Shown here: piece by piece, positions 5,980-38,989 of the stretch
How positions within the stretch are numbered: position 1 is the first letter of the stretch
Layout of the letters: every line of letters begins with the position of its first letter
Assembly: GCA_053919585.1 (NCBI GenBank)
Contig: CM132804.1
Direction: 5' to 3' (one strand)
DNA length: 64,000 nucleotides
DNA from: Euprymna scolopes
Lineage: Eukaryota
Translations under genes and position numbers: made by a program
The notes under the pieces: model-generated
Databases searched by the model: none
What the model saw: the letters and a program-made list of their open reading frames with translations, nothing else
Told to the model about the DNA's origin: nothing

Positions 5980-6024
<45 letters not shown>

Positions 6025-6084
6025 AAATTCCACAGCCAAACAACGTCGCAGCCTACAAAAGCCATGACAATCAAGGAACCGGAA

Positions 6085-6129
6085 GTCCAAGACTCGAGTT
6101 TCGCCCTAGTTCGGGCTCATCAGTTAGAC
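6085..6129 (-). ncRNA. Type I hammerhead ribozyme, intact core
   Basis: Minus strand: GTCTAA-CTGATGA-GCCC(GAACTA)GGGC-GAAAC(TCGA)GTC-TTGGAC. Has the CUGAUGA and GAAA core, a 4-bp stem II, a minimal stem III with a palindromic loop, a GUC cleavage triplet and a 6-bp stem I. Confidence 0.88.
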
Positions 6130-6132
6130 AAA

Positions 6133-6204
6133 TCCGAACTCAGGATTCGAAACCCGAGCCTCTTGCATGCGAGGCAAGCACTCTACCAACTGAGCAAACG
6201 CCCC
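6133..6204 (-). ncRNA. tRNA-Ala(CGC)-derived head (pseudo-tRNA, Pol III A/B boxes)
   Basis: GGGGCGTTTGCTCAGTTGGTAGAGTG-CTTGC(CTCGCAT)GCAAG-AGGCTCGGGTTTCGAATCCTGAG. D, anticodon and T arms form, but the 3' acceptor strand does not pair with GGGGCGT. Confidence 0.8.
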
Positions 6205-6529
6205 GCACACAATAATTTCTATTAACCAACAAAGACCAAGCAAACCGTGCCGAAATCCGACTGTGAATTGAACCTACTTCGTCTCAACAAGGGACGCGGT
6301 CATCCAACCAGCTACATTCTGAAAATCCTATCATAAGTTGCTCGCTTGGTTAGTATTGCTGGATGGTATCGTCCTTTCGAGTTAAAACCCCTACTTGTGA
6401 GACATCGGCTTGGAGTTATTAGCTGGTTGGATGACCGCGTCCCTTGTTGAGACGGAGTAGGTTTATCTCACAGTCGGATTTCGGCGCGGTTTGCTTGATC
6501 TTTGTTGCTTAATAGAAATTCTTGTGTGC

Positions 6530-6649
6530 GGGGCGTTTGCTCAGTTGGTAGAGTGCTTGCCTCGTATGCAAGAGGCTCGGGTTTCGAATCCTGAGTTCGG
6601 ATGTGTCTAACGGATGAGCCCGAATGAGGTCGAAACTCGAGTCTTGGAC
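6530..6649 (+). ncRNA. Second copy of the tRNA-derived head (6530-6601) plus a degenerate hammerhead (6605-6649)
   Basis: Anticodon loop changed to CTCGTAT. Core reads CGGATGA instead of CTGATGA, and stem II (GCCC/GGTC) has a mismatch. Confidence 0.8.
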
Positions 6650-7146
6650 TTCCGGTTCGTTGATTGTCATGGCTCTTGTGGGCTGCGACGTTGTTTGGCT
6701 GCGGAATTTATTATATACAATCTCTCACATTCTGAAAATTATATATATATATATATATATGTTTATATGTGTATGTGCATGCNNNNNNNNNNNNNNNNNN
6801 NNNNNNNNNNNNNNNNNNNNNNNNNNNNNNNNNNNNNNNNNNNNNNNNNNNNNNNNNNNNNNNNNNNNNNNNNNNNNNNNNNNNNNNNNNNNNNNNNNNN
6901 NNNNNNNNNNNNNNNNNNNNNNNNNNNNNNNNNNNTTGAAAATAAAAATCCAGCAGAGTGCTCAATTAAAAGGAAAATCCGAAAAATAAGAGCGTATTTA
7001 TATTTTATATTTTGTGTACAGAAAGTTGTTAGATGAGATAAGTCATCGGTACCGTCGGTTTCAAACCCGATAATTAGGACCGTTTTACATATCCATATCA
7101 AGCTCTCCTCAGCCAGTACTCATCTCTTTCTGTACACAAAATACAA

Positions 7147-7177
<31 letters not shown>

Positions 7178-7191
7178 ACATATATATATAT

Positions 7192-7222
<31 letters not shown>

Positions 7223-7649
7223 TTCTGTAGAAATATTAATTACATACAAAATAGTGAATAAATGACAAAAAACTATATTCCACAATTCATGATGTTGACC
7301 ATCTAATTTTTAATTACTTTAATTCAGTTGACATTTCTTGAGAGTATATGTTTTGTAGCTCAAAAACAATCACTTAATTATTATATCAATCAATGAATCT
7401 ATTATGCCCTTAACTCCTCAGGAGAAATAACAACAATCAATCCGGCAAATTGAAAGAAAGTTTGATTTAACATAATTAAAATCCGAAAATTGGAAGAGAA
7501 GTTGAAAATACTTTTAGTATGTTTCCATTAAGCCATTTTTATTTTCAGATCGGATATTGTCAACAATTGTAAATGTCAACTGAATTAAACGAATAAATGA
7601 TAAGATGGTCAACACAATGCATTTTGGAATATAGTTTTTTGTCGTTTAT

Positions 7650-7723
<74 letters not shown>

Positions 7724-8454
7724 AGTAAGAAACCCATTTCATCCAAGGCATGGAAATGGTTAAAGAAAATGTTTCTCTATAAGCTTTAAAAATAAAGGTA
7801 CAAAATTCAATTTGAGATGTATTAACCTTCAAAGTGCATTTTTATAAGTTTTACAAAGTAAGGTATGAAAATATAATTTAAATTGAATAAAAAATTACCT
7901 TGGATTTATTTTATGTAATGTAGAATCTGTTTCACTTTAAAAAAATCATTGAAAATTTTACATCTATATAATTAATTGCTAGATGAAAGATAATGTTTTT
8001 AAATTTCTTAAGACTAGTTGTTTCTGATACGTCATTAAAAATCTCTGGTAAAATTGGGACGGAAAGGGTGATAACAGTTAATTCAAATTCATAAATAACA
8101 CAACACCTTTCTTAACTATACATAATACCATACATAATAACGCTCTATCCGAAAACACACCGTTCAATCTCGGTGATTTTAATTTCATATGCAACATGAC
8201 TCGGCAGAAATTTATTAAAGTAATTACCAATGCTACTGCACAGAATGTGGAATCTATTTACCGTGGAAAAACCACCTGCTTACTGTTGTAAGTATCTAAA
8301 GACACCATTCTCAAGTGCATGATCTATTTTCTCTACGAATGTTACTCTTGAAAAGGTCTAAAGAAATCTCTTACCTAATAAGCCAACCAAGCTCCAACTC
8401 CTGTAACATTACATCAATGTTTCATACTGTGCCTTTTTCCATACACTTTAATTA

Positions 8455-11400
8455 AACCTGGCTTGACGATTGCTTAAGACTTTGACTACGCAACGTACAA
8501 AACCCCACTAAGTCGAATCTGGCTTGACGAATGCTTAACAATTTGACTACGCAACGTACAAAACCCCGCTAACTCGCATCTGGCTTGACAAATGCTTAAC
8601 AATTTGACTACGCAACGTATAAATCCCCCACTTACTCGAACCTAGCTTGAGGAATGCTTAACAATTTGACTACGCAACGTACAAAACCCCACTTACTCGG
8701 ACCTGGCTTGAGGAATGCTTAACAATTTGACTACGCAACGTACAAAACCCCACTTACTCGGACCTGGCTTGAGGAATGCTTAACAATTTGACTACGCAAC
8801 GTACAAAACCCCACTTACTCGGACCTGGCTTGAGGAATGCTTAACAATTTGACTACGCAACGTATAAAAAACCCACTTACTCGGACCTAGCTTGACGAAT
8901 GCTTAACAATTTGACTACGCAACGTACAAACCCCCACTTACTCGAACCTAGCTTGAGGAATGCTAAGCAATTTGACTACGCAACGTACAAAACCCCACTT
9001 ACTCGGAGCTGGCTTGAGGAATGCTTAACAATTTGACTACGCAATGTATAAAAACCCCACTTACTCGGACCTAGCTTGACGAATTCTTAACAATTTGACT
9101 ACGCAATGTATAAAAACCCCATTAACTCGAACCTGGCTTGACGAATGCTTAACAATTTGACTACGCAACGTACAAAACCCGACTAACTTGAACATGGCTT
9201 GACGAATGCTTTACAGTTTGACTAAGCAAAATACAAAACCCCACTAACTCGAACCTGGCTTGAAGAATGCGTAACAATTTGACTACGCAACGTACAAAAC
9301 CCCACTAACTGTAACCTGGCTTAACAAATGCTTAACAATTTGACTACGCAACATACAAAACCCCACTAACTCGAATCTGGCTTGACGAATGCTTAACAAT
9401 TTGACTACGCAACGTACAAAACCCGACTAACTTGAACAGGGCTTGACGAATGCTTTACAGTTTGACTAAGCAAAATACAAAACCTTACTAACTCGAACCT
9501 GACTTGACGAATGTTTAACAATTTGACTATGCAACGTACAAAACCCCACTAACTCGAATCTGGCTTGACGAATGCTTAACAATTTTACTACGCAACGTAC
9601 AAAACCCCACTTACTCGGAGCTGGCTTGAGGAATGCTTAACAATTGTCTTACGCAATGTACAAAAACCCCACTTACTCGGACCTAGCTTGACGAATTCTT
9701 AACAATTTGACTACGCAATGTATAAAAACCCCATTAACTCGAACCTGGCTTGACGAATGCTTAACAATTTAACTACGCAACGTACAAAACCCGACTAACT
9801 TGAACATGGCTTGACGAATGCTTTACAGTTTGACTAAGCAAAATACAAAACCCCACTAACTCGAACCTGGCTTGAAGAATGCGTAACAATTTGACTACGC
9901 AACGTACAAAACCCCACTAACTGTAACCTGGCTTAACAAATGCTTAACAATTTGACTACGCAACGTACAAAACCCCAATAACTCGAATCTGGCTTGACGA
10001 ATGCTTAACAATTTGACTACGCAACGTACAAAACCCGACTAACTTGAACAGGGCTTGACGAATGCTTTACAGTTTGACTAAGCAAAATACAAAACCTTAC
10101 TAACTCGAACCTGACTTGACGAATGTTTAACAATTTGACTATGCAACGTACAAAACCCCACTAACTCGAATCTGGCTTGACGAATGCTTAACAATTTGAC
10201 TACGCAACGTACAAAACCCCACTTACTCGGAGCTGGCTTGAGGAATGCTTAACAATTTGACTACGCAATGTATAAAAACCCCACTTACTCGGACCTAGCT
10301 TGACGAATTCTTAACAATTTGACTACGCAATGTATAAAAACCCCATTAACTCGAACCTGGCTTGACGAATGCTTAACAATTTGACTACGCAACGTACAAA
10401 ACCCGACTAACTTGAACATGGCTTGACGAATGCTTTACAGTTTGACTAAGCAAAATACAAAACCCCACTTACTCGGAGCTGGCTTGAGGAATGCTTAACA
10501 ATTTGACTACGCAATGTATAAAAACCCCACTTACTCGGACCTAGCTTGACGAATTCTTAACAATTTGACTACGCAATGTATAAAAACCCCATTAACTCGA
10601 ACCTGGCTTGACGAATGCTTAACAATTTGACTACGCAACGTACAAAACCCGACTAACTTGAACATGGCTTGACGAATGCTTTACAGTTTGACTAAGCAAA
10701 ATACAAAACCCCACTAACTCGAACCTGGCTTGAAGAATGCGTAACAATTTGACTACGCAACGTACAAAACCCCACTAACTGTAACCTGGCTTAACAAATG
10801 CTTAACAATTTGACTACGCAACATACAAAACCCCACTAACTCGAATCTGGCTTGACGAATGCTTAACAATTTGACTACGCAACGTACAAAACCCGACTAA
10901 CTTGAACAGGGCTTGACGAATGCTTTACAGTTTGACTAAGCAAAATACAAAACCTTACTAACTCGAACCTGACTTGACGAATGTTTAACAATTTGACTAT
11001 GCAACGTACAAAACCCCACTAACTCGAATCTGGCTTGACGAATGCTTAACAATTTGACTACGCAACGTACAAAACCCCGCTTACTCGGAGCTGGCTTGAG
11101 GAATGCTTAACAATTTGACTACGCAATGTATAAAAACCCCACTTACTCGGACCTAGCTTGACGAATTCTTAACAATTTGACTACGCAATGTATAAAAACC
11201 CCATTAACTCGAACCTGGCTTGACGAATGCTTAACAATTTGACTACGCAACGTACAAAACCCGACTAACTTGAACATGGCTTGACGAATGCTTTACAGTT
11301 TGACTAAGCAAAATACAAAACCTTACTAACTCGAACCTGACTTGACGAATGTTTAACAATTTGACTATGCAACGTACAAAACCCCACTAACTCGAATCTG

Positions 11401-11640
11401 GCTTGACGAATGCTTAACAATTTGACTACGCAACGTACAAAACCCCACTAACTCGAACCTGGCTTGAAGAATGCGTAACAATTTGACTACGCAACGTACA
11501 AAACCCCACTAACTGTAACCTGGCTTAACAAATGCTTAACAATTTGACTACGCAACATACAAAACCCCACTAACTCGAATCTGGCTTGACGAATGCTTAA
11601 CAATTTGACTACGCAACGTACAAACTGGTAACTAACTCGA
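8455..11640. repeat. 61-bp tandem satellite, ~52 copies, with a 10-monomer (612-bp) higher-order repeat
   Basis: Consensus cctggcttgacgaatgcttaacaatttgactacgcaacgtacaaaaccccactaactcgaa. The variant ggagctggcttgagg recurs at 9005, 9617, 10229, 10475 and 11087. Confidence 0.97.
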
Positions 11641-11790
11641 CGAGCAGTTAAAAAACACTGCTTTACTGTAGAGATTCCTAGATAATTGAAGTTCTTCTAC
11701 TTTCCCAATTTCTTCCCTCGAACTGCTATACTTTGTAATTCCTTCCCTATTCAGTAATTTCCTGTCTTTATAAACATGTTGAAATCTGAA
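11625..11790 (+). mobile_element. CR1/L2/Jockey-like LINE ORF2 C-terminal relic
   Basis: Reads TRRAVKKHCFTVEIPR...FFPRTAILCNSFP, like the FFPRT..LWNSLP tail of these LINEs. An LGDFN (APE-like) motif lies upstream of the satellite near 8170. Confidence 0.55.
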
Positions 11791-12333
11791 TATAATGCTA
11801 AAAACATGTCTGTAGATAGGGGCTCAGTAAACATTATTCAAAATCGCAGCAAATTTCAATATACCTTTTTTGGATTAAATAAAATAAAAACATTATCTTT
11901 ACAGTTTTCGTTGTTTTTTTTAGTTTGTCTCATCTTTGCTTTCATTTTACTCTGATAATTTCTTTTTTTTACTACTTTTATTTTTTCACTACATTTTTTA
12001 TTTCTTTTAATCGAATTTCTTTCTTTTTTTTTTCTTTATATCCATAGATTTTCTTGTTCAACTTTATCTCCTTTATTATTCTTTTTTTTTTAGGAAAATA
12101 TTACATTTTCTCGTTGTCGAACTTCTTCAAATTAGTTTCTTCTCAAAAATCTGCTTTACTTTAATGCAAATTGATTTCTTTCCTTTTCCCATGTTTCGTA
12201 CTTCCGTTTTGTTTTCGACTTGTTCTCTATCATCCGTTTTTCGTCTTGCTCGGCCACAATAATTTCCCGTGAATACATTGTTATACATGAGAATATGGAC
12301 GAACGAAATGATTAGATATTTTCACATACACGC

Positions 12334-12364
<31 letters not shown>

Positions 12365-14286: not shown

Positions 14287-14877
14287 NNNNNNNNNNNNNN
14301 NNNNNNNNNNNNNNNNNNNNNNNNNNNNNNNNNNNNNNNNNNNNNNNNNNNNNNNNNNNNNNNNNNNNNNNNNNNNNNNNNNNNNNNNNNNNNNNNNNNN
14401 NNNNNNNNNNNNNNNNNNNNNNNNNNNNNNNNNNNNNNNNNNNNNNNNNNNNNNNNNNNNNNNNNAACCAATAATTCTGAGAATATTATCCAAGAGCAGC
14501 ATTCAGGATTATTCGAATAATACATTTTCTAAATGCTGTGCAGTGAACACCGGACTTTAGAAAGAATGCTAAAGTATGGAAACTATCTGTTAAATCATAT
14601 CTAAGGCACTAAATTACCAATGCACTCGACTTTCGCTCGAACGGAAACTCTAGATTCTCATTGTATTTGACAGAATTAAGCGTTTATTAATTCTGAATTC
14701 CTTTCTGTCCTGTGGCAATGTTTTGCTGTCAACAAGGTAGATGCTCATCAAAGAGAGCAAAAGTGAGCTTCGTGGTTGGGTTCGAATACTGTGACCGACA
14801 GAAATTTTACCAGCACTTACGACTGCGTAAGAATGAAACACTAGTGAGTGTAGGCAAAAATATGAATAAATACTTGG

Positions 14878-14938
<61 letters not shown>

Positions 14939-15789: not shown

Positions 15790-15843
<54 letters not shown>

Positions 15844-15864
15844 TATTGCTGTAGAATATTTAAA

Positions 15865-16274
15865 TACCGAAACACAACTGTTTCATCCTTTCGAGCATCA
15901 TCAGTGCATGGTGTCACGATGACAGCCGTCAGAAGATTCGGACTTGGCCGCGAAGATATGATCTGACTTCATAAGCAAGTAACAATTGCGAGAAATACAG
16001 TTGAAATTTAAACTTTTATCATGAAATGTCGAATAATGATAATATCATGATCTGCTCGTATTATTTGGATATTTTGGAAGCAAACCATTATTCAGGCACG
16101 TCTGATTGAACAGGACAAATTTTCTATTTTTCCGATCTTTCTAGCGGTCTTTTCAGCAGGCAAGTTATATAAAATTGAGCCTGAAATTTACCTTCAGCCA
16201 TATTCTTCTAAAGCGCTTTCTTTCTGCACATCTAGTTATCATCAGGAGTGATTGTTCTTGTTTACTTTTTCTTT
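15865..16274 (-). mobile_element. Penelope-like element fragment with hammerhead relic
   Basis: Minus strand LFNQTCLNNGLLPKY (~16065-16115) resembles the N-terminal region of Penelope ORFs. Downstream lies CTGATGA...GAAAC (15872-15908) with broken stems, then (TA)n. Confidence 0.55.
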
Positions 16275-17519
16275 NNNNNNNNNNNNNNNNNNNNNNNNNN
16301 NNNNNNNNNNNNNNNNNNNNNNNNNNNNNNNNNNNNNNNNNNNNNNNNNNNNNNNNNNNNNNNNNNNNNNNNNNNNNNNNNNNNNNNNNNNNNNNNNNNN
16401 NNNNNNNNNNNNNNNNNNNCAGATCATAATCACCTCCCAAGATGTAAACCAATATACAATAATGATGAAATGTAAATTTATGATATTTAACGAGGCCATT
16501 AGAAATTCATTTGCATCGAATATAAATAAAAGTAGGAAAACACACACAATAAAAAGCATAACGATTTTTTTATCGGAATAACATACCGATCAACATAAGA
16601 GACGTCCGAGAGCTGGACTGTAGGAACAAATATATAGCCAGAACGAAAGCCATATATTATTTTTTTGGGGGGGGGGGACTCGGCTTATCTCTGTTTTGTT
16701 TTTCCACTATCAAATTATTTAATACTACACCAAGACAATTCATGATGATTTCTATATTATCACCGTACAAGCAGATTGAAGAAATGAGATATTCTGACAA
16801 GCAAAAATAATTCTTGGATATTTATCTTATATCTCTATGGTGAAACAATTAAAACTATACCAATTCCATAAAATTCTCCAAACATCATATTATGAGATCT
16901 ACTTGAGTGAAAGGGCACGATTTTAAATAAATTTAAAATTTAAATTTTATTGTGTAATTGATGATTATTTTCAAGTAGGAAGACGGAAAATGTTTATCGT
17001 TTTAATATAAAATTAATTCCTTTATTTCTGAATTTCTTTGATAAAAATGCTCATTCGAATTATCTGGATTCTTCGGACTACTGATGTCGTCTTAAGTGGA
17101 TTTTTCACAACGTTTCAGTCGATGCTACCTCAAACAATTATGAGGCGTTTCAGGAAACAGAACCCTTTATTTACTTCACAGCCATGATTGGATAGACATT
17201 TTTTGTTTACTATAAGATTATGCAAATATTCCGCAAGGTTAAATCATGTAGAATATCTGTATGAATATAAATGCATGAAATTGTAAACAAAATCTTTTAA
17301 AAAAATATGCAAATTAGCTTGATGTTTTAAGATAAATGCAATTTAATGACAAATATATGAGAAAGTTGTATTTTCTTGTTAAATAAATACAAAACAAAAG
17401 GTTTTTAATACGAATATCAATACACAAAAAATCATAGCGCATTGGCCCTTTTCTTATTAAATAAATATGAAAAAAAGGTTTTAATATGAATATTAATACA
17501 CAAAAAATCAATGCGCATT

Positions 17520-18560: not shown

Positions 18561-19040
18561 ATGTTTTCGTGTTTCTATATACCTTTTTTTGTTTTATATC
18601 GAGTGGTAGCAATCGAATCTGTTGNNNNNNNNNNNNNNNNNNNNNNNNNNNNNNNNNNNNNNNNNNNNNNNNNNNNNNNNNNNNNNNNNNNNNNNNNNNN
18701 NNNNNNNNNNNNNNNNNNNNNNNNNNNNNNNNNNNNNNNNNNNNNNNNNNNNNNNNNNNNNNNNNNNNNNNNNNNGATCTGTACAAAATGGCATTTATAG
18801 AAAGTTGCAAGATAATCTCAAAGGTTACTACAAGAAATATTTTCTTTAAAATTTTGTATTTTGTTGAGCATTTTAACTTACATACTAAATAAATTCAAGT
18901 TTTTATTACGGTATCGGTGTCACTCCGAGTACATAACGATTAAATAAAATCTGAGTATTAGTATAAGCTCTAATTCGCTATTTTGTCAGTACCCTAATCA
19001 CTGTAGTTTTGCCAGTTTGTAGATGACACGTGAATGGGTG

Positions 19041-19537
19041 TGTTATTTGGATTAATCGGACTATTATTCTCATACTGGGTGTTATTAGTACAACGTTTAA
19101 ATCGCTGAACCTGCGACCTTCTTCGTCTCTTGAAAACATGCGTCTTTTTCTTTACTAAGGAAACGAGAGTTGGCTCTGCATTACAAGAATTCGAACCGCA
19201 GGTTTGATGGTGGGTCTGTAGATCATAAGGAAGGTTCAATCTTTAGGAGTCACTTAGATATTTTTTTTCTATAACCCAGTTTTTCGGGATATCTATACGA
19301 ATTGCTAATAATGTTTTACGAAACAGAGAATCGATACTCATGCGTATTTTTTTTATAAACGGACCCACCCTCAAACACACGGTTCGAATTCTTTTAATGC
19401 AGAGCAAGCCCTATTTTCTTTAGTATAGAGAAAGAAGCATGTTTGAACACCCGAATAAGGTCGAAGGTTGCAGCGACCGAAACGCTGCGGCAATAACCCT
19501 CAAGATGAGAATAATACTCCGATTAATCAACATAACA
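19041..19537. mobile_element. Diverged head-to-head inverted repeat (19041-19220 / 19359-19537) with hammerhead-like relics
   Basis: The arms are recognisable reverse complements. The right arm has GGTTCGAATTC and CCGAATAA-GGTCG...CGACC-GAAACG; the left arm's minus strand has CGAAGAA-GGTCG...CGATT-TAAACG. Confidence 0.65.
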
Positions 19538-20642: not shown

Positions 20643-20685
<43 letters not shown>

Positions 20686-20827
20686 CTATTCTATATGTAT
20701 ATATATATGCATATTATCTATGTATATATATATATATATATATATATAAATATTATACATAAATATATGTATATCAATATTATATATATGTACACACGCA
20801 CACACACACATGTATATATATAGGCAT

Positions 20828-20958
20828 CCATATGCGGTACTGTTTCGCTGTTTTTCAGCTCATCAGTACGGCTATACAAGGAACTACCTCAAGCCAGGAT
20901 CGAAATCCGACCGCTCAAACGAGAATGGGAGCTTCTAACAGTTGCGCTATACGGCTGC
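20828..20958 (-). ncRNA. Second family of tRNA-like head plus hammerhead (partly degenerate)
   Basis: Minus strand: A-box-like TAGCGCAACTGTTAG, B-box-like GATTTCGATCC, then CCGTA-CTGATGA-GCTG(AAAAA)CAGC-GAAAC-AGTACCGCA-TATGG. Core and stems I/II are intact; stem III and the cleavage triplet are mutated. Confidence 0.65.
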
Positions 20959-21095
20959 TGCTATGGTGGCAGTGAATTACCAATGTTTTGACATTGTCTA
21001 AAGTTCCTAAGCCAATTTGTTTGCACAAATGGCATGTCTTCATACGCTAATTGTCATTTGTGTATCACTTCCCAAATGCTCAACTTAAGATAGGG

Positions 21096-21160
<65 letters not shown>

Positions 21161-21469: not shown

Positions 21470-21532
<63 letters not shown>

Positions 21533-25349: not shown

Positions 25350-28300
25350 GGCAAGAGGCATTCGTGTAGTACCTGCGGCATAATGGTGTACATAACAAAC
25401 GTATGGCCTCAAAAATCAACAAAACAGCAGGTCCAACGGCGAACCCCAAAGATACGTTTGCGGTTCACTTGGACACTAAAATCAGGGCTCCTATAACCAC
25501 AAAATCGTCCCCGAGAGCATTCCCCAGAAAACAAGCATAAACAACATAGACTAATTTTAGAGCAGCAACAAAAAGAGGGGCTACAAAAAATTTCGGGAAA
25601 GGACCAGTGGTTGGGAATTACTTGAATTTAAAACTTTACAGAAACAACTAAGATCAAAGACTAGTACCCAGTCTCCATCAAAAAGCCCAGACCCACGTAC
25701 TCCCCAAAAATCATCACCAGAAAAAAAATCATCATAAAATCATCATAAAAATGTCATCAGCAAATATCATGACTCCCCCTTATCACAGGACCAATAAAAT
25801 GGCAACAACAATTTAAACTAATACTATTCAATCCATCACACAAGATACCAAAATTAACTCCCAAACCACAACGCCTCTTCCGCCGAAAACCTATTTCCAG
25901 CACCTCCTACAAAGTCCCAGCCACCATCCCCATTCCTTTACAGGACTCTAAAAACAAACTCCTCCCAATTCCCCAGTAAAAAACTAATTTTAACAACCTG
26001 CACTCCCCCTCAGCCAATGACTCAGACAAATATAGAATACACTACATCCTAACCGGCATCGTCTTTGCTACATCATTGCGAACGTTATAACCAGAGTAAA
26101 AAGCCATCCGCCGAGAGATCTCAGAAAAGTATTTGATTTTTCCACAGTAAAAGTCCTCTGTGCCCACGACACCCTTAATTTCTCGAACGCCAACAGAATA
26201 TTAATAGTCATCAGAACAAGAGATGGAACGAAAGAAATCTAGCGAATGCTGGAGAAAGCTAATTAAAACTTTTATTTTTCACCCTCTCTATTTATCATCA
26301 ACGACCTTACGTTATAAAGTTTTAAAAAATCTTCTTTTGAGAGGGTTCCTGTTCAAATTCATCCCTCATTATATAGGGCTGCTTAACTAACATTTCCTTT
26401 GGCGGTATGCCCCATGGCGGCCATATAAACACTGCCATGACTGAAAATTTACAGGGAACGTGTGATTGACATCCTTATCCCTGACATGATCGTCTCGGAT
26501 ACACAACGCAAAGTGATCATAATGCCACTCAAATTAGCAAGCTTGATTGTTTGAGGGTTGACGGTTACCTCACAAAAACTTCGAGTTGCACGCGACCATC
26601 AACACCTTGGTTGGGATATTTGTTGGCTACAGGAGACTCTCTTTATTCCATCAGATTATTACGGTGTGTTGGATAGGGACTTTCATCTTTACTTAGTATA
26701 TTCTGATATCTATTCAGAGGGAGTTTTCTGGCTAGTTAATCAAAATTTGAAAGCACCATGTGACCCATGATCCTGCTTTTTAGATGTGCGTTTTTGATGT
26801 CACCGTAAGACTTATTGGGGTTTCTCCACATAATAGCCACAATGAGAATCCCCTTTCTTTCGACGGATCGAATATTTCATAAATATATCTAGACGGTTTA
26901 TTTTAGCGGGAGACTGGAACGCGGTGCTGGATCCTGATTAAGATCGCGGGAGTAACGTTTGAAGGGTGACCAATTGAAATCGGGATGTTAACTAATTTCG
27001 GGATTGTATCGATATGTTCATAAGTTCCGGAATTTAAAACCCCGGAAAGAAAGCATATACTTTGACGAGTAGTCACGGCTTCGATTCGATGTAACTTTCG
27101 ATTTATATGGATCAGTTCTAACAAGAGTCGACATAGGTTTTTTAGATTGCCCAAATTTTCAGAATATTTTTTATTCGGACGAGAAACTCACCCAGGTTCA
27201 TTTATACTTAGATTGCGTTAAACCTATGATGGCTTTAGAGTGGAAGTTCAATACGTCATTGTTCGACTTGAAGTACTTCCGGGATGAGCTTTTACTAACC
27301 ATACAACGGAAACCATAATTTGGAATACGTGGTGGGTTGATTCGAAAAAAAAAATTAGGGTATTCGTTGCTGATTATAGTCACCGACTTAATCTTAGCTC
27401 TCGGGTAGTGAAAACGACACTAGAGACTAGATTAGATCTGGCAGTAGAAGACGGAGACTGCAGTAGTTTTACTAGAATAAGGGCATAACTGGACTTGATG
27501 GATTACAATGGCGATCAGGGAATTTTAGTTAGGGCTGGTTGAAGTGAGGGCGAAACGAGAAAACAAATATTGCCGCTTCGTTGCGCGCGGAGAAGCGTTG
27601 GCGGTGAACCAATCGACATATCGTCAGTGTCACATTGCTGGACGAACGCACCTTGACCACAAACGATGGGAATTCGATCCTATTTTCAGGGTCTCTTCAC
27701 TAGAACGTCCACTCTGACAATGGTTCAGTTCCCCATATATTAAGTCCAGTTTTCTCGCCTCAAAGCGATAGAACCGGCTAGGTACGAAAGTTGCAAAAAG
27801 GAAGAAGTCTTGGAGGCTCTGAAACATGTCCAGCTGGAGAGAAATCCTGGTGTCGATGGGCTGTATTACGAAGTATATATGAGATTGTCGCCTTTTTATA
27901 ATCCGCATGGTCGTAATATTTTACTCCTGGTTTAAGAACGGGTGCATTCTTCAGTGTTTTACCAAAGGAATCATTAAATTGCTACACAAGGATAAAAATG
28001 GAGGGGATAGTTTACGTAATGTTCGTCTCTAAACGAAGTCTAATACAGATTTAAAGATTTTAGCCAAGATCTGTGCAAACCGTCTGAAACATTTCTTGCA
28101 TCGCCTTATAAATCCTCAAAAGACTTGTGCAGTTTAGGGCCGGACGATTCATAACTAATTTCTACGTAATTCCCTTGAGTATAGAAATAGTCGACATTGA
28201 AAACTCGCTGATAAATTTAGATACGTCCAAAGCGTTCGATAGGGTCGATCATCGTTACCTGGAGGCTGTTCTGTTCTCATCTGAATTTGGGTCACAATAT

Positions 28301-29720
28301 CGCTTCTGGATTCGCATTCTTTATGCAATACCCGGTGCGCTGGTAGAAGTGAATGGTGTGAGGCCGAAGCCTTTCAATTTGTTCAGATCAATTAAGGGTT
28401 TTCCGCTCTCACCGATTCTTTATGTGCTTGCATTTCGGCCTTTCCTTTGCAGGATTAGAGTTAATCCGGTCTTCGAGGTATTACTCTGCCAGTTGCTTAC
28501 AGGACAAGTGATTACTCTGCTCCCGAGTACTCGCCGACGAGGTAATTGTGCTTGTAAAAAGCAGTGCTTAGACTAAAGTCGTCAACATGAAAGTAAGACT
28601 GTAAAACATGCAACAGGGATCAAAAGCAACTGCGATTACTCCTTGGTTTGCGCATTGCAGCTTGAGGGGAGTACCTCTTCAGGGTTCATTTGACTGGATG
28701 GATCGGCTTTGGAAGATATTCGGCGTCTGATGCGGTCCGCAAATCCAGTTATAGGAAATTGGTCGGAAGTACTGGAAGCTGTTCACGCCATCACACGTTT
28801 ATGGGCCCTGAGAAATCTAACTTTAAAGGGTCGAGCGGAGGTTTGCAATTCGCACATTTATCCTCGTATCCTCTACCGTCTAACAGTACTTTCACTCCCG
28901 GAAACATCACTATTTCAACTTTTTAGTGATATTCTACATTTTCTTGTTGCACAGAAAGAAAACAATGGTTAGCAGGGATATCTGTTAACTGCATCCGTCG
29001 GAAGACGGTCTGATCATGCTAAGCATTGATATCTAGAGGTATACGCTTCTCATAATTTACCTAAACGGAATGTATACACTATGTGACCAGAACAGTGATT
29101 TTTGGACAAAAGACACTAAAAAAATTTTCCAGTTTTGAAAAGTGTACACTCGCCAACAGTAGAGACACACACGTTACCCCAACTGAGTGTTCCTTTATCG
29201 CGAATGTCGAGAGTCCTTGAAGCTCCTCTGACGGGTGAAAGTAAGCCTCTCTGACACCTGCGTGTTTCTTGTAGGGCGCTATATATGTTATAGTGCAGGA
29301 ATATCTTCAAGATGATAGGACGTAGAGTCTCGGTTTTATGAGTGGGGGGGCGACTCTTAGTATGGCCTTTGACGCCTGTGATGACGTGCCTTGATAATTA
29401 TGAGGTTTCACGCACCTTGCACATAATAAGAGATGTTCGCAGCAAACATGGTGAAGACGGTAAGTTGTCTGCGATCGGAGGACGAGATCGAAGCTATCAA
29501 GTGCGCTATCGTACGTCCGTGTCGGCACAGGCCAAGAGAGAAGTGGAATCACGACATAAGCAAGTTTACGGAGATAAAAACGTCACTGCTCTCCAGCTTG
29601 TTTTTATTTTCAAGCACCGCTTGGAAATTTGTATTAGGCTGGAGAAGGTGGAACTCACTCAGGCAAATTTCAACGAATGTAGGATTCCAGTTAAGACCAA
29701 TTGCCGCTGCTAGCGAGAAA
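25350..29720 (+). mobile_element. Tx1/L1-clade non-LTR retrotransposon, long but heavily pseudogenised (5' boundary uncertain)
   Basis: Motifs in order: APE endonuclease (MPLKLASL ~26522, DICWLQET ~26615, ILAGDWNAVLDP ~26900), WKFNTSL (27241), PGVDGLYYEVY (~27845), RT (LINLDTSKAFDRVDH, FPLSPILYVL; 28127-28576) and LWALRNLTLKGRAEVCN (28800). Confidence 0.88.
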
Positions 29721-30365: not shown

Positions 30366-30400
<35 letters not shown>

Positions 30401-30425
30401 ATAATAATAATAATGATAATAGTAA
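30088..30425. repeat. Degenerate (ATA)n/(CTA)n microsatellite
   Basis: Directly visible. Confidence 0.95.
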
Positions 30426-30518
30426 TTTACATGTTAGTTGTTTTTATACGTTTATCAGAAATTATCGGTGGGCATTTGACGTGGAAACTTTACTGACATA
30501 CACAGAGTAACACACATA

Positions 30519-32814: not shown

Positions 32815-33847
32815 GGCGGGCGGCATGTAAAATGGTCAACCTCTTTCGACCCATCTGTTAGGAAATTCCTGATTTAGAAACTGTCTAACACGCTTAGCAA
32901 GGAGCTCCATCTTGTTGAAACACTGTATCATCTTTCAAGTTTAATTGTTCAAGTTGCGGAATAAAGTAATTCTGCAACATATCTAAGTAGCTGCCATTGA
33001 TAATAACACGATCTTCAAAAAAATATGGCCCTATGATTCGATTTATTCCCAAAGCACACCACACATTAACTTTAAGAGAGTCCCTATCATGTTCAACAGG
33101 TTCATTTGGGGTTTCAGTTCCCCAAACTCGGCAATTATGCCTGTTGACCTTGCCACTAATGTGAAATGTTGCTTCATCAGACAACAGTAAATTACTCACA
33201 AATGCATCATCATTGCACAGTTTTTCATTGAACTGGTGACAGAAAGTTAGCCGTGCATAATAATCCTCTTCTAACAACTGTTGATGTAATTGAATTTTGT
33301 AAGCTTTCATGTGAAGTTTTGCCCGCAGAATCTTATGCACAGTAGACTTTGGCAGCCCGAGCTCCAATAATGCCCGTCTTACAGACTTTCTTGGACTTGC
33401 AGTAAAGGATTCTCCTATGGAAGCAACACTTTCGTCACTGACACATGCCCTTCCAGAACGTTGTTTATCATAGACAGAGACCGTCTCTTTAAATTTTTTC
33501 ATGCATTTAACAATAGTGTTCCTATGAGGCGCTTTTTTATTGTATTCAATTCTAAACTGCCTTTGTACAGCAATAGTAGATTTCAATTCAGCCAACCAAA
33601 AGGACACAGTTTACTTTTTCCTCAATTGAAGCCATGGGATCAAATTGATTCTGAAAAACAAAAGAAAATATGTTTTACTGATTTTTTACTTATCGGAAAA
33701 TTGTTACGAGTTTTGTGGTGAAAAAGTATTCAATAACAAGACTTACAACTAGATACATGAAACTGTATAACATTTTTTTACAGATTATTTCTTTCGCAAA
33801 TATAAATAAAATTTAATTTTTTAAAAGTGCAGACGAACTTTATGGAC

Positions 33848-33853
<6 letters not shown>
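32815..33853 (-). pseudogene. Tc1/mariner-superfamily (rosa/DD41D-like) transposase pseudogene with one TIR, 3'-truncated
   Basis: ORF 32894-33607 has an HTH region, SDEATFH, VNVWC, IIGPYFF and FQQDGAP. A stop follows GAPC and the ATG at 33635 is frameshifted. The TIR-like end tagggtgtccataaagtt abuts (TA)n. Confidence 0.9.
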
Positions 33854-33917
<64 letters not shown>

Positions 33918-34817
33918 CATACAGTAGCGTCTAAAAATAAGGGAGAGTATTAAAAACCTATTATTCGTTAGAAATAACAACTGTGAAAGTCTGAAATTTT
34001 GACAACTGGTAGTCATTATAATCCATAATAAGATACTAAAATTTGAATCATTTGCAAAGGATGGAAAAAGAATTATAACAATTATTTATTTTCAAAATAG
34101 GAACGTCCAAAGATAAAGGAGAAAATTGAGATCATTTTGAATTCGAACGTCATAAAACGACGTTATTCCTGCACCGACCTACTAGGCACTTTGTTTTCCT
34201 TTATAATTGGAGTAAAATAAGCATCCTTTACGTCTAATTATTATCTGAATTTTTCATGTAGAGATCAACATGATGTATTCCCTATTTAGTCTTAGCATTC
34301 GAAACGATGCACGTGCTACGAATTGAGTGTCATTATCAGAGTGTTTAAAACTCGAATTTTGCAAATTAAGTTGTCTCTGATTCATGTATGACCATTATCT
34401 TTTCTACTCCGATATGAAAGAAACTTTTCTCCTTGTGTCTGTCTGAGTTCGGTCTCTACGGATTCCTAAAAAGATTGACTATTTTTTATTTAACTTAAAC
34501 ACAAATATACATTATGTGTCTGGCCGTGTTCTAAGATCACATTCATTTCGGAATGTCTGCGATATATAACGATAACCGAAAATCGAACACATTAATAAGA
34601 GTGAAAGTTAACGCCTTATACAGCCAACTACAACAAGCACATTTGAAAAGTTTTATTAACACACAAGCGGAAAGACCCGGCATATAGAATCAAACATGCT
34701 TTGATATGAAAGGGGTACTACGAAACGAATATTTCTCTTTAGAGCATAGCAGAACCATGTTACTTTATATTAGCATTTTAAATTTAATTTAAGATTCAAA
34801 ACATTATACATAGCACC

Positions 34818-36079
34818 AATTTATAATATAAACCTCACCTGTCTGTTTAAATGCATGTATGTATGTATGTATGTATGTTATATGTCAGGTTATATCATAT
34901 GCTACTGGTACCATGTAACCCAGTACTACCTGCCTCATGGTCGGGTCACCGGCGACTAAACTGGTTCCCCCACCAGACTTGTTTTGTGAGGAGGGCTGAT
35001 AGTCTCCCTGAAGGATTAAAAACAAGTCCTTCCAAAGGGCGAATGGACTCTTTTTCTGGGTCAACGGCCAACTAGCACCGTGTATATTTGTGTGTGTTTA
35101 TATGTGTATTGGGGTAGAGAGGGCTTCCGTAAGCTGTGGTGAAGGCAACCTTTCTAGGAGAAGCGAATCTCTGATTTAAAAAAAACATAAATCGGAAGAC
35201 CAGTACCCGCATTAAGCTGGTCTGCAGTTTAATTTGTTGCTGGCTATCTTGCTCTTGCTTGTTGCTGGATCTCAACATTTTGAACCGAGAGAGAGACTTA
35301 GCTGTCGTACAAAGCTAAGACTCTTTAACATCATATTTGTATAGATACTCCCTCAGACATTTCGGCTCATGGATTTTAAATGTCTGAGGGAGTGGTACTC
35401 GTCTGACAAGACGTTGCAATCATCATCATGTCTGTTTGCCTAAAACTTTGGACAGACGCGTTGAAACGTGAGAAAACCGGATTCATGTTAAACCAAGAAC
35501 TTTCAGTCGACAAATATTGAAAAATTAGCCAAACACATTAATCCCTTCACCCTCACTAGGGGCAGTTTTCTACAAGGAGGGGTTTCGCAGATATTTTCGA
35601 AAGTCATCCACTCTTTTCGATGTTCTAGCCTTAATTATGACGTTAGTCCCTCCTGGTATTTCGATGGAAGCAACAGCAATGACATCACGTTGTTTTTTAC
35701 GTTCTTTTCCTCCTTCTCGGTACCGATTTGAGCCTGCCTACATTGCTTCTACCGTTTTTTTTTTCCTTTTGCTCAACACACACCTCCAAACAGCCAGGAA
35801 GTGCCGGGAACCTAGACTAGTTTTAAAATAAAAGAAACAGTAGGGTATCTACAGTACAATGTAAATGACAATGTATTGTGTACGAAGTCACTGCGGGGAG
35901 TATGTGAACCCCCCTCCCCACCTAGTGAACCTCGCTGAGTCCCTAACTATAGCAGAGAGTTTATCGATTTGATTGAAAAAATGAGTGATTTCACCGATAC
36001 CGATGACAATAAAAATATGAGTGTTAAACATTTGTTGATCATCTTTCAATAACGGGCAACGTCGGGTCTCCCTGCTAGT
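34818..36079 (+). mobile_element. Helitron-like non-autonomous element interrupted by the 555-bp element
   Basis: Starts ttataatataaacctcacctgtctg, homologous to 41681 onward, and homology resumes after 35428. Ends cgggcaacgtcggg...CTAGT. Confidence 0.55.
34870..35428. mobile_element. ~555-bp non-coding dispersed element, copy 2
   Basis: Inverted copy of 30519-31075, inserted in the (TATG)n tract of a Helitron-like element. Confidence 0.85.
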
Positions 36080-38059
36080 CTTCTTTAATTTTAAAATGAA
36101 AGATCGTCATAAGTTGTCTGCTGTTGCTCAATCGATTGCAATCAACAATCGATATGTCTACCAGACGATGGATTATTATTCGACAACTCGGTTCGATTGA
36201 ATAATTAAATTCCATTATTATTTAAGGAGGCTACTAAAGATAAACATTACTCGATCAATAGCAGCCGTAATCATATTAATAAAGCAATGCTGACAAAATT
36301 AATTATATATTTAACATAGAGCGTGTCATCGATTGTGAATGCGGTACAGATTTATGGAATATATTAAAGTCGTTGTAATTTAATAGAGAATTGCATTAAT
36401 TGTGCCTTTCAGCTGACGGCATAGTGTACGTAATACTGCACGTTTTAATATGTGGTATCGCGGTAATTTCACTGATAGCATACTAATTAGTATCTCCTCA
36501 TTTGGGGTATTAAGTTCATCATTTTTCAAAGAGAAAAATCTGCGGACAAAATACAGTATGGCAAATCACATCATAATTTTATGCAGAAGAGTGATTAAGC
36601 ATAAATAACTGAAAAAAATGTTTTGGCTCTGAAAAATAATCCACATAGAGCCCGTCAAATTACATGTTCGAACATACAGAAAACAAAAAACAACTTGTAA
36701 AGCATCAACCAGCGTTTTATCCTCCGCTTAGTGCAGATTACCAACCGACGTGGTTTATTTTTTGTCATTCCTACAGATCACTGGCAAGTTAGTTGAGCGA
36801 CGTCTAATCAACAACATTTTCTCTCCACTTTCTCTTAACATTCCTCTGCCCCTTTGTATTCTAATATACCGCCAAAGAATAACTCTGACATAGTAATTGG
36901 GTGACCGTTTGACATGCCAGAATATTTAAATGTTTAAGTTTGGATTTTATCAAATAGAGGAGGTAAAGAAGTAGTTTGACCGTGGGTGGATATTTTGTTT
37001 TGCTTTTTCCCTTAATAAAACGCGCTACGTGATTTTAAAACAACTTAATGCGATTAGCTAATTGTTTAGTTCACATGATACAACCAGAGCCATAAAATAC
37101 TACTGGGAGGATATAAATTAAATAAACTTTTACTTTAACAGGTATAGGTGTTTTTTGAGGGCCGCCCAACCCAACACGATTCTGTGTTTCACTATCGTCT
37201 TTTGATTACGAAAGACAATCAGTTCATGCCCTAAATAAATGAATGGTTAACCGTTTGATGGGTTCAGTGTGAATAGGCATTTTTTTAAAGCACGAAAAAA
37301 GAAAATAGACTACTTCAATGGTCAATCATAGGAAATAAAATAGGAAAATCATAATTAAAAATTAATGTAAATAACAATTCGTTTCTTAACTCTACAGCCC
37401 GAGCCTGATCGAATCTCACAATGTCCCTGCAAACGAATCAGTAATAAATACAAACGTCGGAGAAGAAAATAAAAAAAAATAAAGCTGCGTTTTGGAAAAT
37501 AAAATCAGAACAAAAAAAAAAAACACTGTAACGTGGATATTTTTTTTAATATATAGATTTGTTTCATTGTTTTCGGTGAAAAAAAAAGCACCGTAGCTAT
37601 TGCTGCAATATTAAGAATATTTTCCTTAAATCTCTTTACATGACTTGTAAAAATAAAATATAATCAAGACTAAATATCATTGTAATCGATTCTATTTTAC
37701 GTCTCTTTGTAAACATTGAGGGCGTCATGTGATGAAACATATTGTTTATTTTACGTTCAATAGTGCAGATATTCTGATCAATTACATGAGAGGAAATCAC
37801 GCTTTGATATTCTAAAATACTACCAGGGACATTTGATTTTTCCCGGAATTGAATGCTGATCAACGCATGTTGAACACACCAATAATTTTATTGTAATCGA
37901 ATCGAATCAGATATATTGATTGCCTATTCTAGTTACAGAGAGGAAGCTTCAAATGCCTCGCCTCACAGACTTAGGCAACACTACATTATACTCTAGTAAA
38001 CATTGCACTGTAGTAAACATACTATTAGTTTTATAAAATTATATTTTTATATATAACAA

Positions 38060-38462
38060 GCCCGGATGGTTGAGGGGTGTTGAGCAAAACAAAAAAAAAT
38101 AGTAATAGACAGGCAGGCTCGAACTCGTACCGTAAAGGAAGAAAAGAACGGTAAAAAAAACGTGACGTCATTGCTGTTGCGCCCATCTCCAAACCAGAAG
38201 TGACAAATGTTTAAATAAAGGCGAGTCAATAGAGGAGAGGGGATTACTTTCGAAAATACCGGCGATAAAAGCGACCCTCCTTTTAGAAAATTGCCCCGTT
38301 AAGAGTTAAGGTATTATGGTTTTAGCCAATGCCTCGATGTTGGTCGTCCGAAGCGTCGAGCTTCAAAACGATACCGATCTCCTCATAATCCGTCGTCTCT
38401 GTCGAAAGTTTTCGGCAGACATACAAATAGACATACATATATTTAAAATAACAGGTGAGGTT
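38060..38462 (-). mobile_element. Helitron-like element, minus-strand relative of 41681-42095
   Basis: gtcgaaagttttcggcagacatac...aacaggtgagg is the reverse-complement homologue of 41695-41760. Confidence 0.45.
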
Positions 38463-38463
38463 C

Positions 38464-38540
38464 ATACAGGGTGTCCACAAAGTCTGGCTACATTATGTAG
38501 CCAGACTTTGTAGGAACATTCTGTAGATTATGTAGCCAGA
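38464..38540. mobile_element. Tc1/mariner TIR-derived MITE-like fragment
   Basis: TA-cagggtgtccacaaagtctggctaca with an internal palindrome. A related end lies at 38984-39040, and both resemble the TIR at ~33835-33853. Confidence 0.5.
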
Positions 38541-38674
38541 NNNNNNNNNNNNNNNNNNNNNNNNNNNNNNNNNNNNNNNNNNNNNNNNNNNNNNNNNNNN
38601 NNNNNNNNNNNNNNNNNNNNNNNNNNNNNNNNNNNNNNNNNNNNNNNNNNNNNNNNNNNNNNNNNNNNNNCGAT

Positions 38675-38728
38675 TAAGCTACACTGAATATTCTGTGTTT
38701 CATCCAACTATAGGATTCGTCAGGCTTA
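38675..38728 (-). ncRNA. Type I hammerhead ribozyme (left arm of palindrome)
   Basis: TAAGC-CTGACGA-ATCC(TATAGTT)GGAT-GAAAC-ACAGAATATTCAGT-GTA-GCTTA. Confidence 0.82.
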
Positions 38729-38744
38729 TGCGCGAATTCGCACA

Positions 38745-38798
38745 TAAGCCTGACGAATCCTATAGTTGGATGAAACGCAGAATATTCAGTGTAGCTTA
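38745..38798 (+). ncRNA. Type I hammerhead ribozyme (right arm of palindrome)
   Basis: TAAGC-CTGACGA-ATCC(TATAGTT)GGAT-GAAAC-GCAGAATATTCAGT-GTA-GCTTA. Full core, GUA triplet (cut predicted after 38793) and a near-palindromic stem III. Confidence 0.85.
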
Positions 38799-38928
38799 AT
38801 CGCCATATATATTTTATAAATTACTAACTAGCCCTACCTACGTATTGAGCACTTTTGAAGTAAATACTTAAAGTTTACGCATAAATCAATACTTTCGTAT
38901 ATCAAATTTGTGTGAATAAATGAAGTAG

Positions 38929-38989
<61 letters not shown>

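Follow-up and report, generated by a model that had tools for sequence, protein, structure and literature searches.

Hammerhead ribozymes of six dispersed retroelement families, probably dependent on Penelope-like elements, in a stretch of Euprymna scolopes DNA

The hammerhead motifs in the 64,000 nucleotides of Euprymna scolopes DNA analysed here (the window; contig CM132804.1 of assembly GCA_053919585.1) are real and come from six dispersed retroelement families, F1 to F6, not from one system. It is probable, at roughly 0.78 in our estimate, that all six depend on the RT and GIY-YIG proteins of Penelope-like elements (PLEs), with F4 and F6 being PLE ends and F1, F2, F3 and F5 being non-coding non-LTR retrozymes. 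Judging from their sequences, the latter four have an Sm-alpha-like build, with a predicted Pol III promoter just before the hammerhead. The initial annotation had proposed one shared system; its observation was partly confirmed and its interpretation partly supported. The features that it joined sort by family instead: inversions belong to F1, F4 and F6, A and B boxes to F1, F2, F3 and F5, and TA targets to all but F4.

Hammerhead motifs in the window

Hammerhead motifs were present at all six sites where they had been reported. A type I descriptor gave 103 matches in 570,637 bases of window and loci, a sample biased by the fact that most loci were chosen for containing these families, and 0, 0 and 0 matches in three block shuffles. 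By eye, three of nine window motifs are intact (6123 and 38723 on the minus strand, 38750 on the plus strand); the others have core, stem or cleavage-triplet changes, and sites other than 6085 and 6605 were recognised via family membership. The majority strings of F1, F2, F3 and F5 have full type I cores and stems, and the hammerhead is intact in 25/28, 4/20, 11/20 and 10/20 copies, respectively; of these four families, F1 alone exceeds the RF00163 cut-off. From a genome-wide RF00163 search, 57 distinct loci were classified, leaving aside the copy in the window, a duplicate and repeats within arrays. All 57 are F1, with no other family among them. The description of the elements as unrelated does not hold for the sites at 14816 and 15904, which belong to F2 and F3. 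These two families have 168 nt in common at 82% identity and, on this alignment, are relatives.

PLE 3' ends: F4 and F6

Genomic linkage identifies F4 and F6 as the truncated 3' portions of PLEs that encode proteins. The window holds two arms of each:

19016..19350, minus strand: longer F4 arm, from the untranslated 3' end of a GIY-YIG PLE; it holds a minimal-hammerhead relic (core 19126) and part of the 31-nt tail
19359..19537, plus strand: shorter F4 arm, with a minimal-hammerhead relic (core 19451) and without (TA)n
38734..38929, plus strand: F6, 5'-truncated 3' repeat of a Hydra-clade PLE (98%), with an intact hammerhead from 38750 and (TA)n at 38931-38984
38671..38739, minus strand: inverted F6 arm, with an intact hammerhead from 38723

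A Penelope-like ORF remnant had been proposed within the window; none was found there when three PLE protein pieces were compared with it by tblastn or when 18 ORFs were searched with Pfam, and the PLE ORFs joined to these two families lie elsewhere in the genome. The same F6 end is placed after RT and GIY-YIG ORFs in loci L131 and L286. Its Hydra clade was assigned from motifs, the L131 translations containing RWR (RWK-like), DKT, CxCX5C, CxxC and CxH (compared with PMC8557442). The F6 EN matched GIY-YIG PF01541 at E 1.6e-4 and 22.4 bits (cut-off 22.6), and its Atlas matches carried HTH_animal on 28-84% of members. Pfam on the F6 ORF did not detect an RT domain, and a homologous-protein search with the F6 EN scored 0/73 candidates. 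Copies of F6 are near-identical and the PLE is young. A second Hydra-like family, in locus L140, has by eye neither hammerhead nor box in the approximately 700 nt past its EN.

F4 sits downstream of a GIY-YIG-like frame in loci L185 and L187 (Atlas 0.96; PF01541 on 14-21% of members). We take its clade to be Penelope/Poseidon-type, an assignment made by eye from EN motifs, with no RT recovered. The hammerhead core has CCGA instead of CUGA in most F4 copies and is canonical in 1/20.

Non-coding units with a predicted promoter: F1, F2, F3 and F5

The remaining families consist of units without an ORF, of 413 nt in F1 (the period in tandem loci), 338 nt in F2, 340 nt in F3 and 279 nt in F5. Their copies and parts in the window are:

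6314..6712, plus strand: F1 main copy, positions 15-413 of the 413-nt non-coding unit, 96% to the family majority string by blastn
6713..6739, plus strand: optional 3' tail of F1, made up of 27 nt from the start of the following unit, with (TA)n beyond it at 6740-6759
6022..6314, minus strand: inverted F1 arm (left arm), truncated at its 5' end, which covers unit positions 121-413 and runs up to (TA)n at 5983-6020
6085..6129, minus strand: intact type I hammerhead of the F1 left arm, RF00163 50.9 bits (gathering 34)
6605..6649, plus strand: hammerhead of the F1 main copy, core and stem II mutated, RF00163 31.7 bits, below gathering 34
6140..6195, minus strand: tRNA-like cassette of the F1 left arm, A and B boxes, RF00005 31.9 bits (gathering 29)
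6539..6594, plus strand: tRNA-like cassette of the F1 main copy, A and B boxes, RF00005 32.2 bits (gathering 29)
14562..14872, plus strand: F2, old single copy of the 338-nt unit, 76% to the family majority string, with a hammerhead relic from 14816 that follows a B box at 14779, and (TA)n at 14880-14935
15841..16032, minus strand: F3, old 5'-truncated copy of the 340-nt, F2-related unit, with decayed B box, hammerhead relic from 15904 and (TA)n at 15791-15840
20825..21099, minus strand: F5, the entire 279-nt unit flanked by TA runs (89% to the family majority string), carrying both A and B boxes and a hammerhead with its core at 20866 and a mutated cleavage triplet

F1 copies are young (94-99% identity). 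Whole-unit folding gave mixed z values (F1 -3.7, F3 -3.3, F5 -1.6 and F2 -0.7; 25 shuffles).

The B boxes reported upstream of the hammerheads were borne out for F1, F2, F3 and F5, where they lie 31-41 nt ahead of the hammerhead core, but the box is decayed in the copy at 15904 and there is none at the 38675/38745 pair; the B box is absent in F6 and in 7/7 other hammerheads examined. Scored against an A/B consensus that was widened, after F1 and F5 had been inspected, to accept one extra T in the B box, the boxes of F1, F2, F3 and F5 have 1, 3, 2 and 0 mismatches, equalled by 0, 2, 0 and 0 of 100 shuffles, respectively. The F6 score was equalled by 52/100 shuffles. In F4, GGTTCGAATT beat 100/100 shuffles as a candidate promoter, but its A box is poor and the core is 71 nt away, with two T4 runs in the interval, and it was not counted. 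F4 contains four T4 runs and F6 two.

The putative promoter of F1 is derived from a tRNA. In addition to the RF00005 matches listed above, the F1 cassette resembles the genome's tRNA-Thr at z 6.4, and Ala was the commonest isotype when F1 loci were searched with relaxed ARAGORN. Default ARAGORN reported no tRNA in the window or in 49/49 F1 and F5 loci, and 61/62 matches of a genome-wide RF00005 search came from a single tRNA-Thr array. The tRNA likeness of the F5 cassette is weak (z 2.3, 8/300 shuffles), and Rfam tRNA matched 0/20 loci each for F5, F2 and F3 and none of three single copies. The F2, F3 and F5 cassettes may resemble Asn and Ser/Leu tRNA genes. Repeated capture of tRNA promoters, as originally suggested, is plausible given three mutually non-aligning cassettes in two spacing classes among the box-bearing families, but a tRNA origin was found for F1 only. 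5S-like repeats occur in five flanks, with no hammerhead behind them by eye.

Insertion marks and (TA)n targets

All four PLE insertion marks, namely 5' truncation, partial tandem, inverted 5' copy and optional tail, occur in F1. F2, F3 and F5 have truncation and tandem alone, with upstream inversion in 0/60 loci and no tail seen. Tandem loci number 12/28 in F1, 11/20 in F2, 8/20 in F3 and 7/20 in F5, and the F1 arrays include one of 9 units and another of about 6. The F1 tail of 27-32 nt was found at 8/28 loci in one set and 12/57 in the other.

The three inverted pairs of the window proved real, with ribozymes pointing outward. Among the 57 F1 loci there were 30 divergent and 0 convergent pairs; the inverted arm retained the 3' end at 25/57, and 9/30 inverted arms ended inside hammerhead stem/loop II (unit positions 327-334). 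Inverted copies also occur in F4 (9/20) and F6 (7/20). Outward-pointing pairs are the known 5' inversion of PLEs, for which both inversions and TA targeting are already published (PMC8557442).

Adjacency to (TA)n, also noted initially, held for five families (11-25 of 19-27 copies). A (TA)n run lay within 45 nt of the 3' end in 25/27 copies of F1, 11/19 of F2, 13/19 of F3, 15/19 of F5 and 18/19 of F6, against 6-13% in the flanks, and (TA)n was commoner at the 3' than at the 5' end in every TA family. It did not hold for the 19090/19451 pair or for the other F4 copies, 0/19 of which have (TA)n at the 3' end and which serve as an internal negative.

Mobilisation and alternative explanations

We propose that Pol III would start at the cassette of one unit and read into the next, and that the hammerheads would cut this transcript into unit-length RNA, perhaps circularised. 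A PLE protein would nick (TA)n; a Hydra-type protein is probable because TA targeting is common to F6 and the box-bearing families. The optional tail would reflect which of two internal start sites, both 3' of the ribozyme, the cDNA uses, and crossing the cut site would require an uncut multimer or a circle. At outward pairs, both target strands would prime cDNA at the same 3' start, with the two truncated products joined. In vitro, a PLE protein cleaves and extends at both strands and uses two internal RT starts (PMC11167929).

The suggestion that PLE proteins with a TA preference mobilise these elements agrees with the PLE ends of F6 and F4, the PLE marks of F1 and the five families at (TA)n, although F4 lacks TA. 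Termini shared with autonomous PLEs were found for F6 and F4 but not for F1, F2, F3 and F5, whose majority strings gave no alignment with either F4 or F6; a shallow search, in which these two PLE ends were compared, found no autonomous PLE sharing their ends. The Hydra ORF match among box-family loci, at L068 only, is a separate F6 insertion. More tentatively, and with the odds in our judgement somewhat against it, PLE-dependent hammerhead units may have acquired tRNA promoters on three or more occasions in this lineage, always just ahead of the ribozyme, as the recurring promoter-last SINE counterpart of PLEs, with the outward pairs recording both-strand cDNA priming in which the RT often halts at the folded hammerhead.

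The boxes might instead be passengers, with units transcribed by host Pol II read-through, PLE copying of uncut multimers, and both promoter and ribozyme dispensable. We consider this unlikely, despite several points in its favour. PLE hammerhead mutants still insert in vitro (PMC11167929), and F1 sequence is present in RNA runs in reads from both strands. These reads have no pile-up of molecule starts or ends, and the unit-length back-joint seen in 4/4 RNA runs is also given by tandem DNA. Nor are F1 5' truncations concentrated at the cleavage site: among 25 loci sorted by hand from the first 100 of 902 rows, 5/25 ends lay at the cut site and 5/25 four bases beyond it, with no clear excess at the former. 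Although 15/23 classifiable ends fell within a 6-base stretch around the cut site (P 0.001, post hoc), TA microhomology or stalling could also explain this cluster. Against dispensability, three non-aligning cassettes all set the B box 31-41 nt before the core. All four units also lack T4 runs, an absence that holds for the sense strand only and is significant by itself just for F1 (P 0.0095; others 0.06-0.19). The F1 core is intact in 25/28 young copies, though youth alone can explain this.

In raw run X24, 16/162 placed reads carried loose poly-T ends that met the F1 sequence precisely at its cut site (1724/1725). We rejected these ends as in vivo cleavage, since they are accounted for by priming on an A run in the genome: a T run is joined to the F1 cut site at two places in the genome, and one of these, L171, has three variant letters of the same-strand X24 reads (by eye).

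It is very unlikely that F1, F2, F3 and F5 represent ordinary SINEs with a tRNA head, mobilised by LINEs and equipped with a chance hammerhead and a (TA)n tail. A and B boxes with a tRNA-like head are SINE hallmarks, and the F1 cassette is above the Rfam tRNA cut-off. However, the A box lies at unit position 238 in F1, 184 in F2, 181 in F3 and 153 in F5 and full copies start at position 1, so that copies run some 150-240 nt upstream of the A box rather than starting at the head in the classical manner. Nor could a single-copy transcript that begins at the tRNA head yield head-to-tail partial tandems, and for F1 the PLE tail and the inverted arms holding the 3' end contradict such an origin. 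Finally, chance in a microsatellite-rich genome, which the 26 (TA)6+ runs in the window and locus flanks TA-richer than the window average might suggest, is refuted as the source of the (TA)n association and inverted pairs by 3' ends at 58-95% versus 6-13% in the same flanks, by F4 at 0/19, by the strictly divergent F1 pairs and by the excess of 3' over 5' ends in every TA family.

Relation to known elements and significance

The preferred reading, PLE-dependent retrozymes beside PLE ends, has precedents for each of its components in print, and the design of tRNA promoter plus ribozyme is already known from blood flukes. In the available portions of the published accounts, Sm-alpha joins a Pol III promoter and a hammerhead in tandem (PMC6765202) and is derived from tRNA-Gln (PMC2770079). 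F1, F2, F3 and F5 resemble in layout the schistosome Sm-alpha and Sj-alpha repeats, in which a type I hammerhead comes after the Pol III promoter, cleavage leaves the promoter 3'-terminal in the RNA and tandems are required (PMC6765202). In contrast, the squid repeats belong to another phylum and comprise three non-aligning cassettes in one genome, and the PLE insertion marks of F1 are not described for Sm-alpha in those portions (PMC6765202, PMC2770079). Metazoan non-LTR retrozymes, as far as the accessible text goes, are tandem units of 150-450 nt (mussel examples 350-390 nt) with type I hammerheads and no ORF, for which PLEs have been proposed as mobilisers (PMC7229834; bioRxiv 10.64898/2026.07.22.740005). 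F1, F2, F3 and F5 match them in unit size, tandems, hammerhead type and lack of an ORF but carry A and B boxes, whereas the accessible text names no Pol III promoter. The preprint describes pLTR homology in Xenopus, of which no counterpart was found here, and demonstrates circular RNA, where we have only a DNA-compatible joint (bioRxiv 10.64898/2026.07.22.740005). Helenus, Ajax and Cassandra, in the part of the account available, likewise have a small-RNA-derived Pol III promoter inside a terminal repeat and need a second repeat for a full transcript, but are non-autonomous LTR elements with PBS and PPT and without a ribozyme (PMC10886601).

F6 does not differ materially from Hydra-clade PLEs in motifs, canonical hammerhead, (TA)n insertion and inverted 5' copy (Craig et al. 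2021, PMC8557442). F4 has several features of Penelope/Poseidon-type PLEs: a GIY-YIG-like end, a 31-nt tail, inversions and a minimal hammerhead in which an extra base follows position 9, the closing pair is G-C and helix III is palindromic. It differs from them in the CCGA core of most copies (PMC4209133). Within literature excluding most subscription papers and Repbase, we found no account of cephalopod tRNA-promoter hammerhead repeats or of ribozyme-ended inverted arms.

Published arguments about the transcription and mobilisation of animal retrozymes draw mainly on co-occurrence and terminal homology. F1, with its tRNA promoter, intact canonical hammerhead and PLE marks, together with the young Hydra-clade PLE offers a practical test system, and the pair would suit tests of Pol III transcription, trans-mobilisation and the role of the ribozyme.

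Hammerhead families in the window

The initial annotation had placed hammerhead or hammerhead-relic motifs at six sites, and all were confirmed in place. The sites belong to six dispersed repeat families, F1 to F6:

6022-6739, F1
14562-14872, F2
15841-16032, F3
19016-19537, F4
20825-21099, F5
38671-38929, F6

The Rfam hammerhead model RF00163 gave 50.9 bits for the F1 copy at 6085-6129 and 31.7 bits for its partner, and a hammerhead descriptor matched 103 times in 570,637 bases and not once in each of three shuffled controls. By eye, three of the nine window motifs are intact; the majority strings of F1, F2, F3, F5 and F6 regain complete cores and stems. The F4 hammerhead is of the minimal type, with a CCGA core in most copies, and is like the minimal hammerheads described in PMC4209133. 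Further hammerhead-related sequences in the window are:

7047-7112, minus strand, a further hammerhead-like motif, the seventh, whose stem II region is long; overlooked in the initial annotation
17060-17130, minus strand, short F4 fragment
59310-59366, minus strand, short F4 fragment (these two 73-75%)

Sequence related to the seventh motif occurs at five other loci, one of which (L070) satisfies the descriptor but lacks a B box. Another family, at L022 (~420-560), has an outward-pointing hammerhead pair whose stem II is 10 bp long; it too lacks a B box.

The window is C22:73284001-73348000 of a 5.9-Gb genome. Each site served as a query against that genome, and the first-look candidates, which do not equal copy numbers, came to 3121 (F1), 318 (F2), 1515 (F3), 2837 (F4), 5451 (F5) and 977 (F6). 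Because only the best 40 candidates per query were scored and 20-30 loci fetched per family, the samples are biased to long, similar copies. Two duplicate or overlapping F1 loci were set aside from the tandem counts, giving n=28, and a second F1 sample of 57 loci was picked on ribozyme score alone.

F6 and F4 are ends of Penelope-like elements

Genomic linkage identifies F6 and F4 as ends of Penelope-like elements (PLEs). F6 copies, 96-100% alike, lie after RT and endonuclease frames at L131 and L286, and the linked proteins carry RWR, DKT, CxCX5C, CxxC and CxH. These motifs mark the Hydra clade, whose hammerheads are canonical and whose targets are (TA)n (PMC8557442). The F6 endonuclease reaches 22.4 bits against PF01541, just under the cut-off of 22.6, and CCAAT- and GC-box-like words were seen by eye 5' of the ribozyme. 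At L185 and L187, F4 runs on upstream into a frame that has GIY-YIG features but no match in a direct Pfam search, and no RT was recovered. F4 copies stop at either of two 3' ends separated by 31 nt. L140 (6729-7999, minus strand) holds a second family of Hydra-like PLEs, with 41-60% protein identity to F6.

Non-coding units with Pol III-type boxes

The other four families are non-coding units of 413 nt (F1), 338 nt (F2), 340 nt (F3) and 279 nt (F5), present singly and as head-to-tail partial tandems (12/28, 11/20, 8/20 and 7/20 fetched loci, respectively). F2 and F3 have their 3' 168 nt in common (82%). Each of the four carries a B box 31-41 nt ahead of the hammerhead core, preceded by an A box at 42-43 nt (F1, F5) or 52 nt (F2, F3). 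Scored against the box consensus, with one variant admitted post hoc, the A and B boxes of F1, F2, F3 and F5 have 1, 3, 2 and 0 mismatches, equalled by 0, 2, 0 and 0 of 100 shuffles. The earlier proposal of B boxes just upstream stands for these families but not for F6, whose best box score was equalled by 52 of 100 shuffles and which has no A/B pair. Since no B box occurred within 130 nt of any of seven descriptor matches from other families (background 5.6%), the promoter link is a family trait here and not a general hammerhead rule; (TA)n lay no more than 200 nt away in five of the seven (background 23%).

The F1, F5 and F2/F3 cassettes fail to align with one another (z <= 1.6), but F1 and F5 have a 17-nt B-box word in common (E 0.1); two or three promoter captures are therefore possible. 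The F1 cassette scores above the Rfam tRNA cut-off; 60 loci and three single copies of F2, F3 and F5 gave no Rfam tRNA match. Sense-strand runs of four T are absent from all four families (shuffle probabilities 0.0095, 0.11, 0.06 and 0.19 for F1, F2, F3 and F5) and present in F4 and F6; A runs of four or longer occur in each of the four.

(TA)n adjacency and inverted arms

The (TA)n adjacency noted initially holds for five families but not for F4. Window copies excluded, (TA)4+ occurred no more than 45 nt from the 3' end in 25/27 F1, 11/19 F2, 13/19 F3, 15/19 F5 and 18/19 F6 copies, against 5.9-13.1% in flanks and 4.2% in the window, and in 0/19 F4 copies. In each TA family, 5' ends were less often TA-adjacent than 3' ends.

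Outward-pointing pairs, noted initially, recur in the loci of F1, F4 and F6 sampled here but not in those of F2, F3 and F5. In the long-match samples, with a search reaching 450 nt and window copies counted, an upstream inverted arm was found at 5/28 F1, 9/20 F4 and 7/20 F6 loci and at 0/60 F2/F3/F5 loci (Fisher P 0.003 vs. F1); downstream inverted pieces occurred at 3/128 loci over all families. Among the 57 F1 loci, 30 had an upstream arm, 25 of these reaching the 3' end, and none a downstream one; 15 had a tandem and 12 a tail, an optional 3' extension into the next unit. An inverted 5'-truncated copy and a 30-40-bp tail are usual for PLEs (PMC8557442), and a PLE protein has been described that cleaves and extends both target strands, starting at two internal sites bounding the tail (PMC11167929). 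Two-strand extension of this kind is in keeping with pairs in which both arms contain the 3' end.

Nine of the 30 F1 arms stop between unit positions 327 and 334, in loop II and the 3' side of stem II, and the flanking 32 positions hold two arm ends (P 2e-5, post hoc). Five of the nine end at 327-328, on five contigs and with five different main-copy starts; in the earlier F1 sample, one of five arm ends lay nearby (325). The F1 insertion end is 69 nt past the ribozyme cut site, so the template of a full copy must be a circle or a multimer that was left uncut. Two F1 copies flanked by TA runs (L171, C24:99715603; L172, C39:34815640) start at the cut site after 10-12 T. They might be reverse transcripts of cut RNA that received an untemplated tail, but a T run of this kind also sits at a junction four bases past the cut site.

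F1 sequence was present in 19 of the 24 sequencing runs listed, 4 of them recorded as RNA. Reads of four runs were aligned; the single run of raw reads gave 162 F1 reads, on both strands, with no accumulation of read starts or ends. A unit-length back-joint in the reads is explained as well by tandem DNA as by a circle. Poly-T read ends at the cut site were rejected as cleavage products, having been traced to a genomic copy.

Other repeats

Other elements in the window include:

7251-7656, MITE-like repeat with 86-nt terminal inverted arms, adjoining (TA)n, present at several other loci; no hammerhead seen
8455-11624, satellite, 52 copies of a 61-nt unit
28112-28573, plus strand, LINE-type RT fragment (RVT_1, E 1e-6)
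32897-33610, minus strand, transposase fragment (DUF4817, E 0.001), assigned by eye to a Tc1/mariner-like class

Elsewhere, C11:1.68-2.16 Mb (L141-L170) holds a large tandem array of tRNA-Thr genes spaced at ~144 nt, some with anticodons drifted to Lys and Ser. Dispersed 5S rRNA-like heads (L035, L039, L042, L060, L113; 40-70 bits), some beside microsatellites and four with a common downstream body, form a 5S-derived SINE-like family.

Proposed mechanism and relation to known systems

The unit structure, tandems, boxes, TA ends, F1 tail and inversion, and PLE linkage of F4 and F6 are direct observations. In the route that we propose, Pol III would read through across tandem units, the ribozyme would process the transcript (by putative self-cleavage, with putative RNA circles), and a Hydra-type protein would copy the units, with priming presumably from both target strands. 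The scheme proposed for the box-bearing units, promoter-last and tandem-dependent, is the one described for schistosome Sm-alpha (PMC6765202), a family linked to tRNA-Gln (PMC2770079). Metazoan non-LTR retrozymes were defined in PMC7229834, where PLEs are suggested as movers, and a 2026 preprint argues for the same movers from pLTR homology (bioRxiv 10.64898/2026.07.22.740005). The initial hammerhead observation is real, and known PLE and retrozyme biology largely accounts for it. What is added is the presence of several promoter-bearing retrozyme families within one mollusc, PLE marks on one such family, and a lead on a place where reverse transcription may stop.
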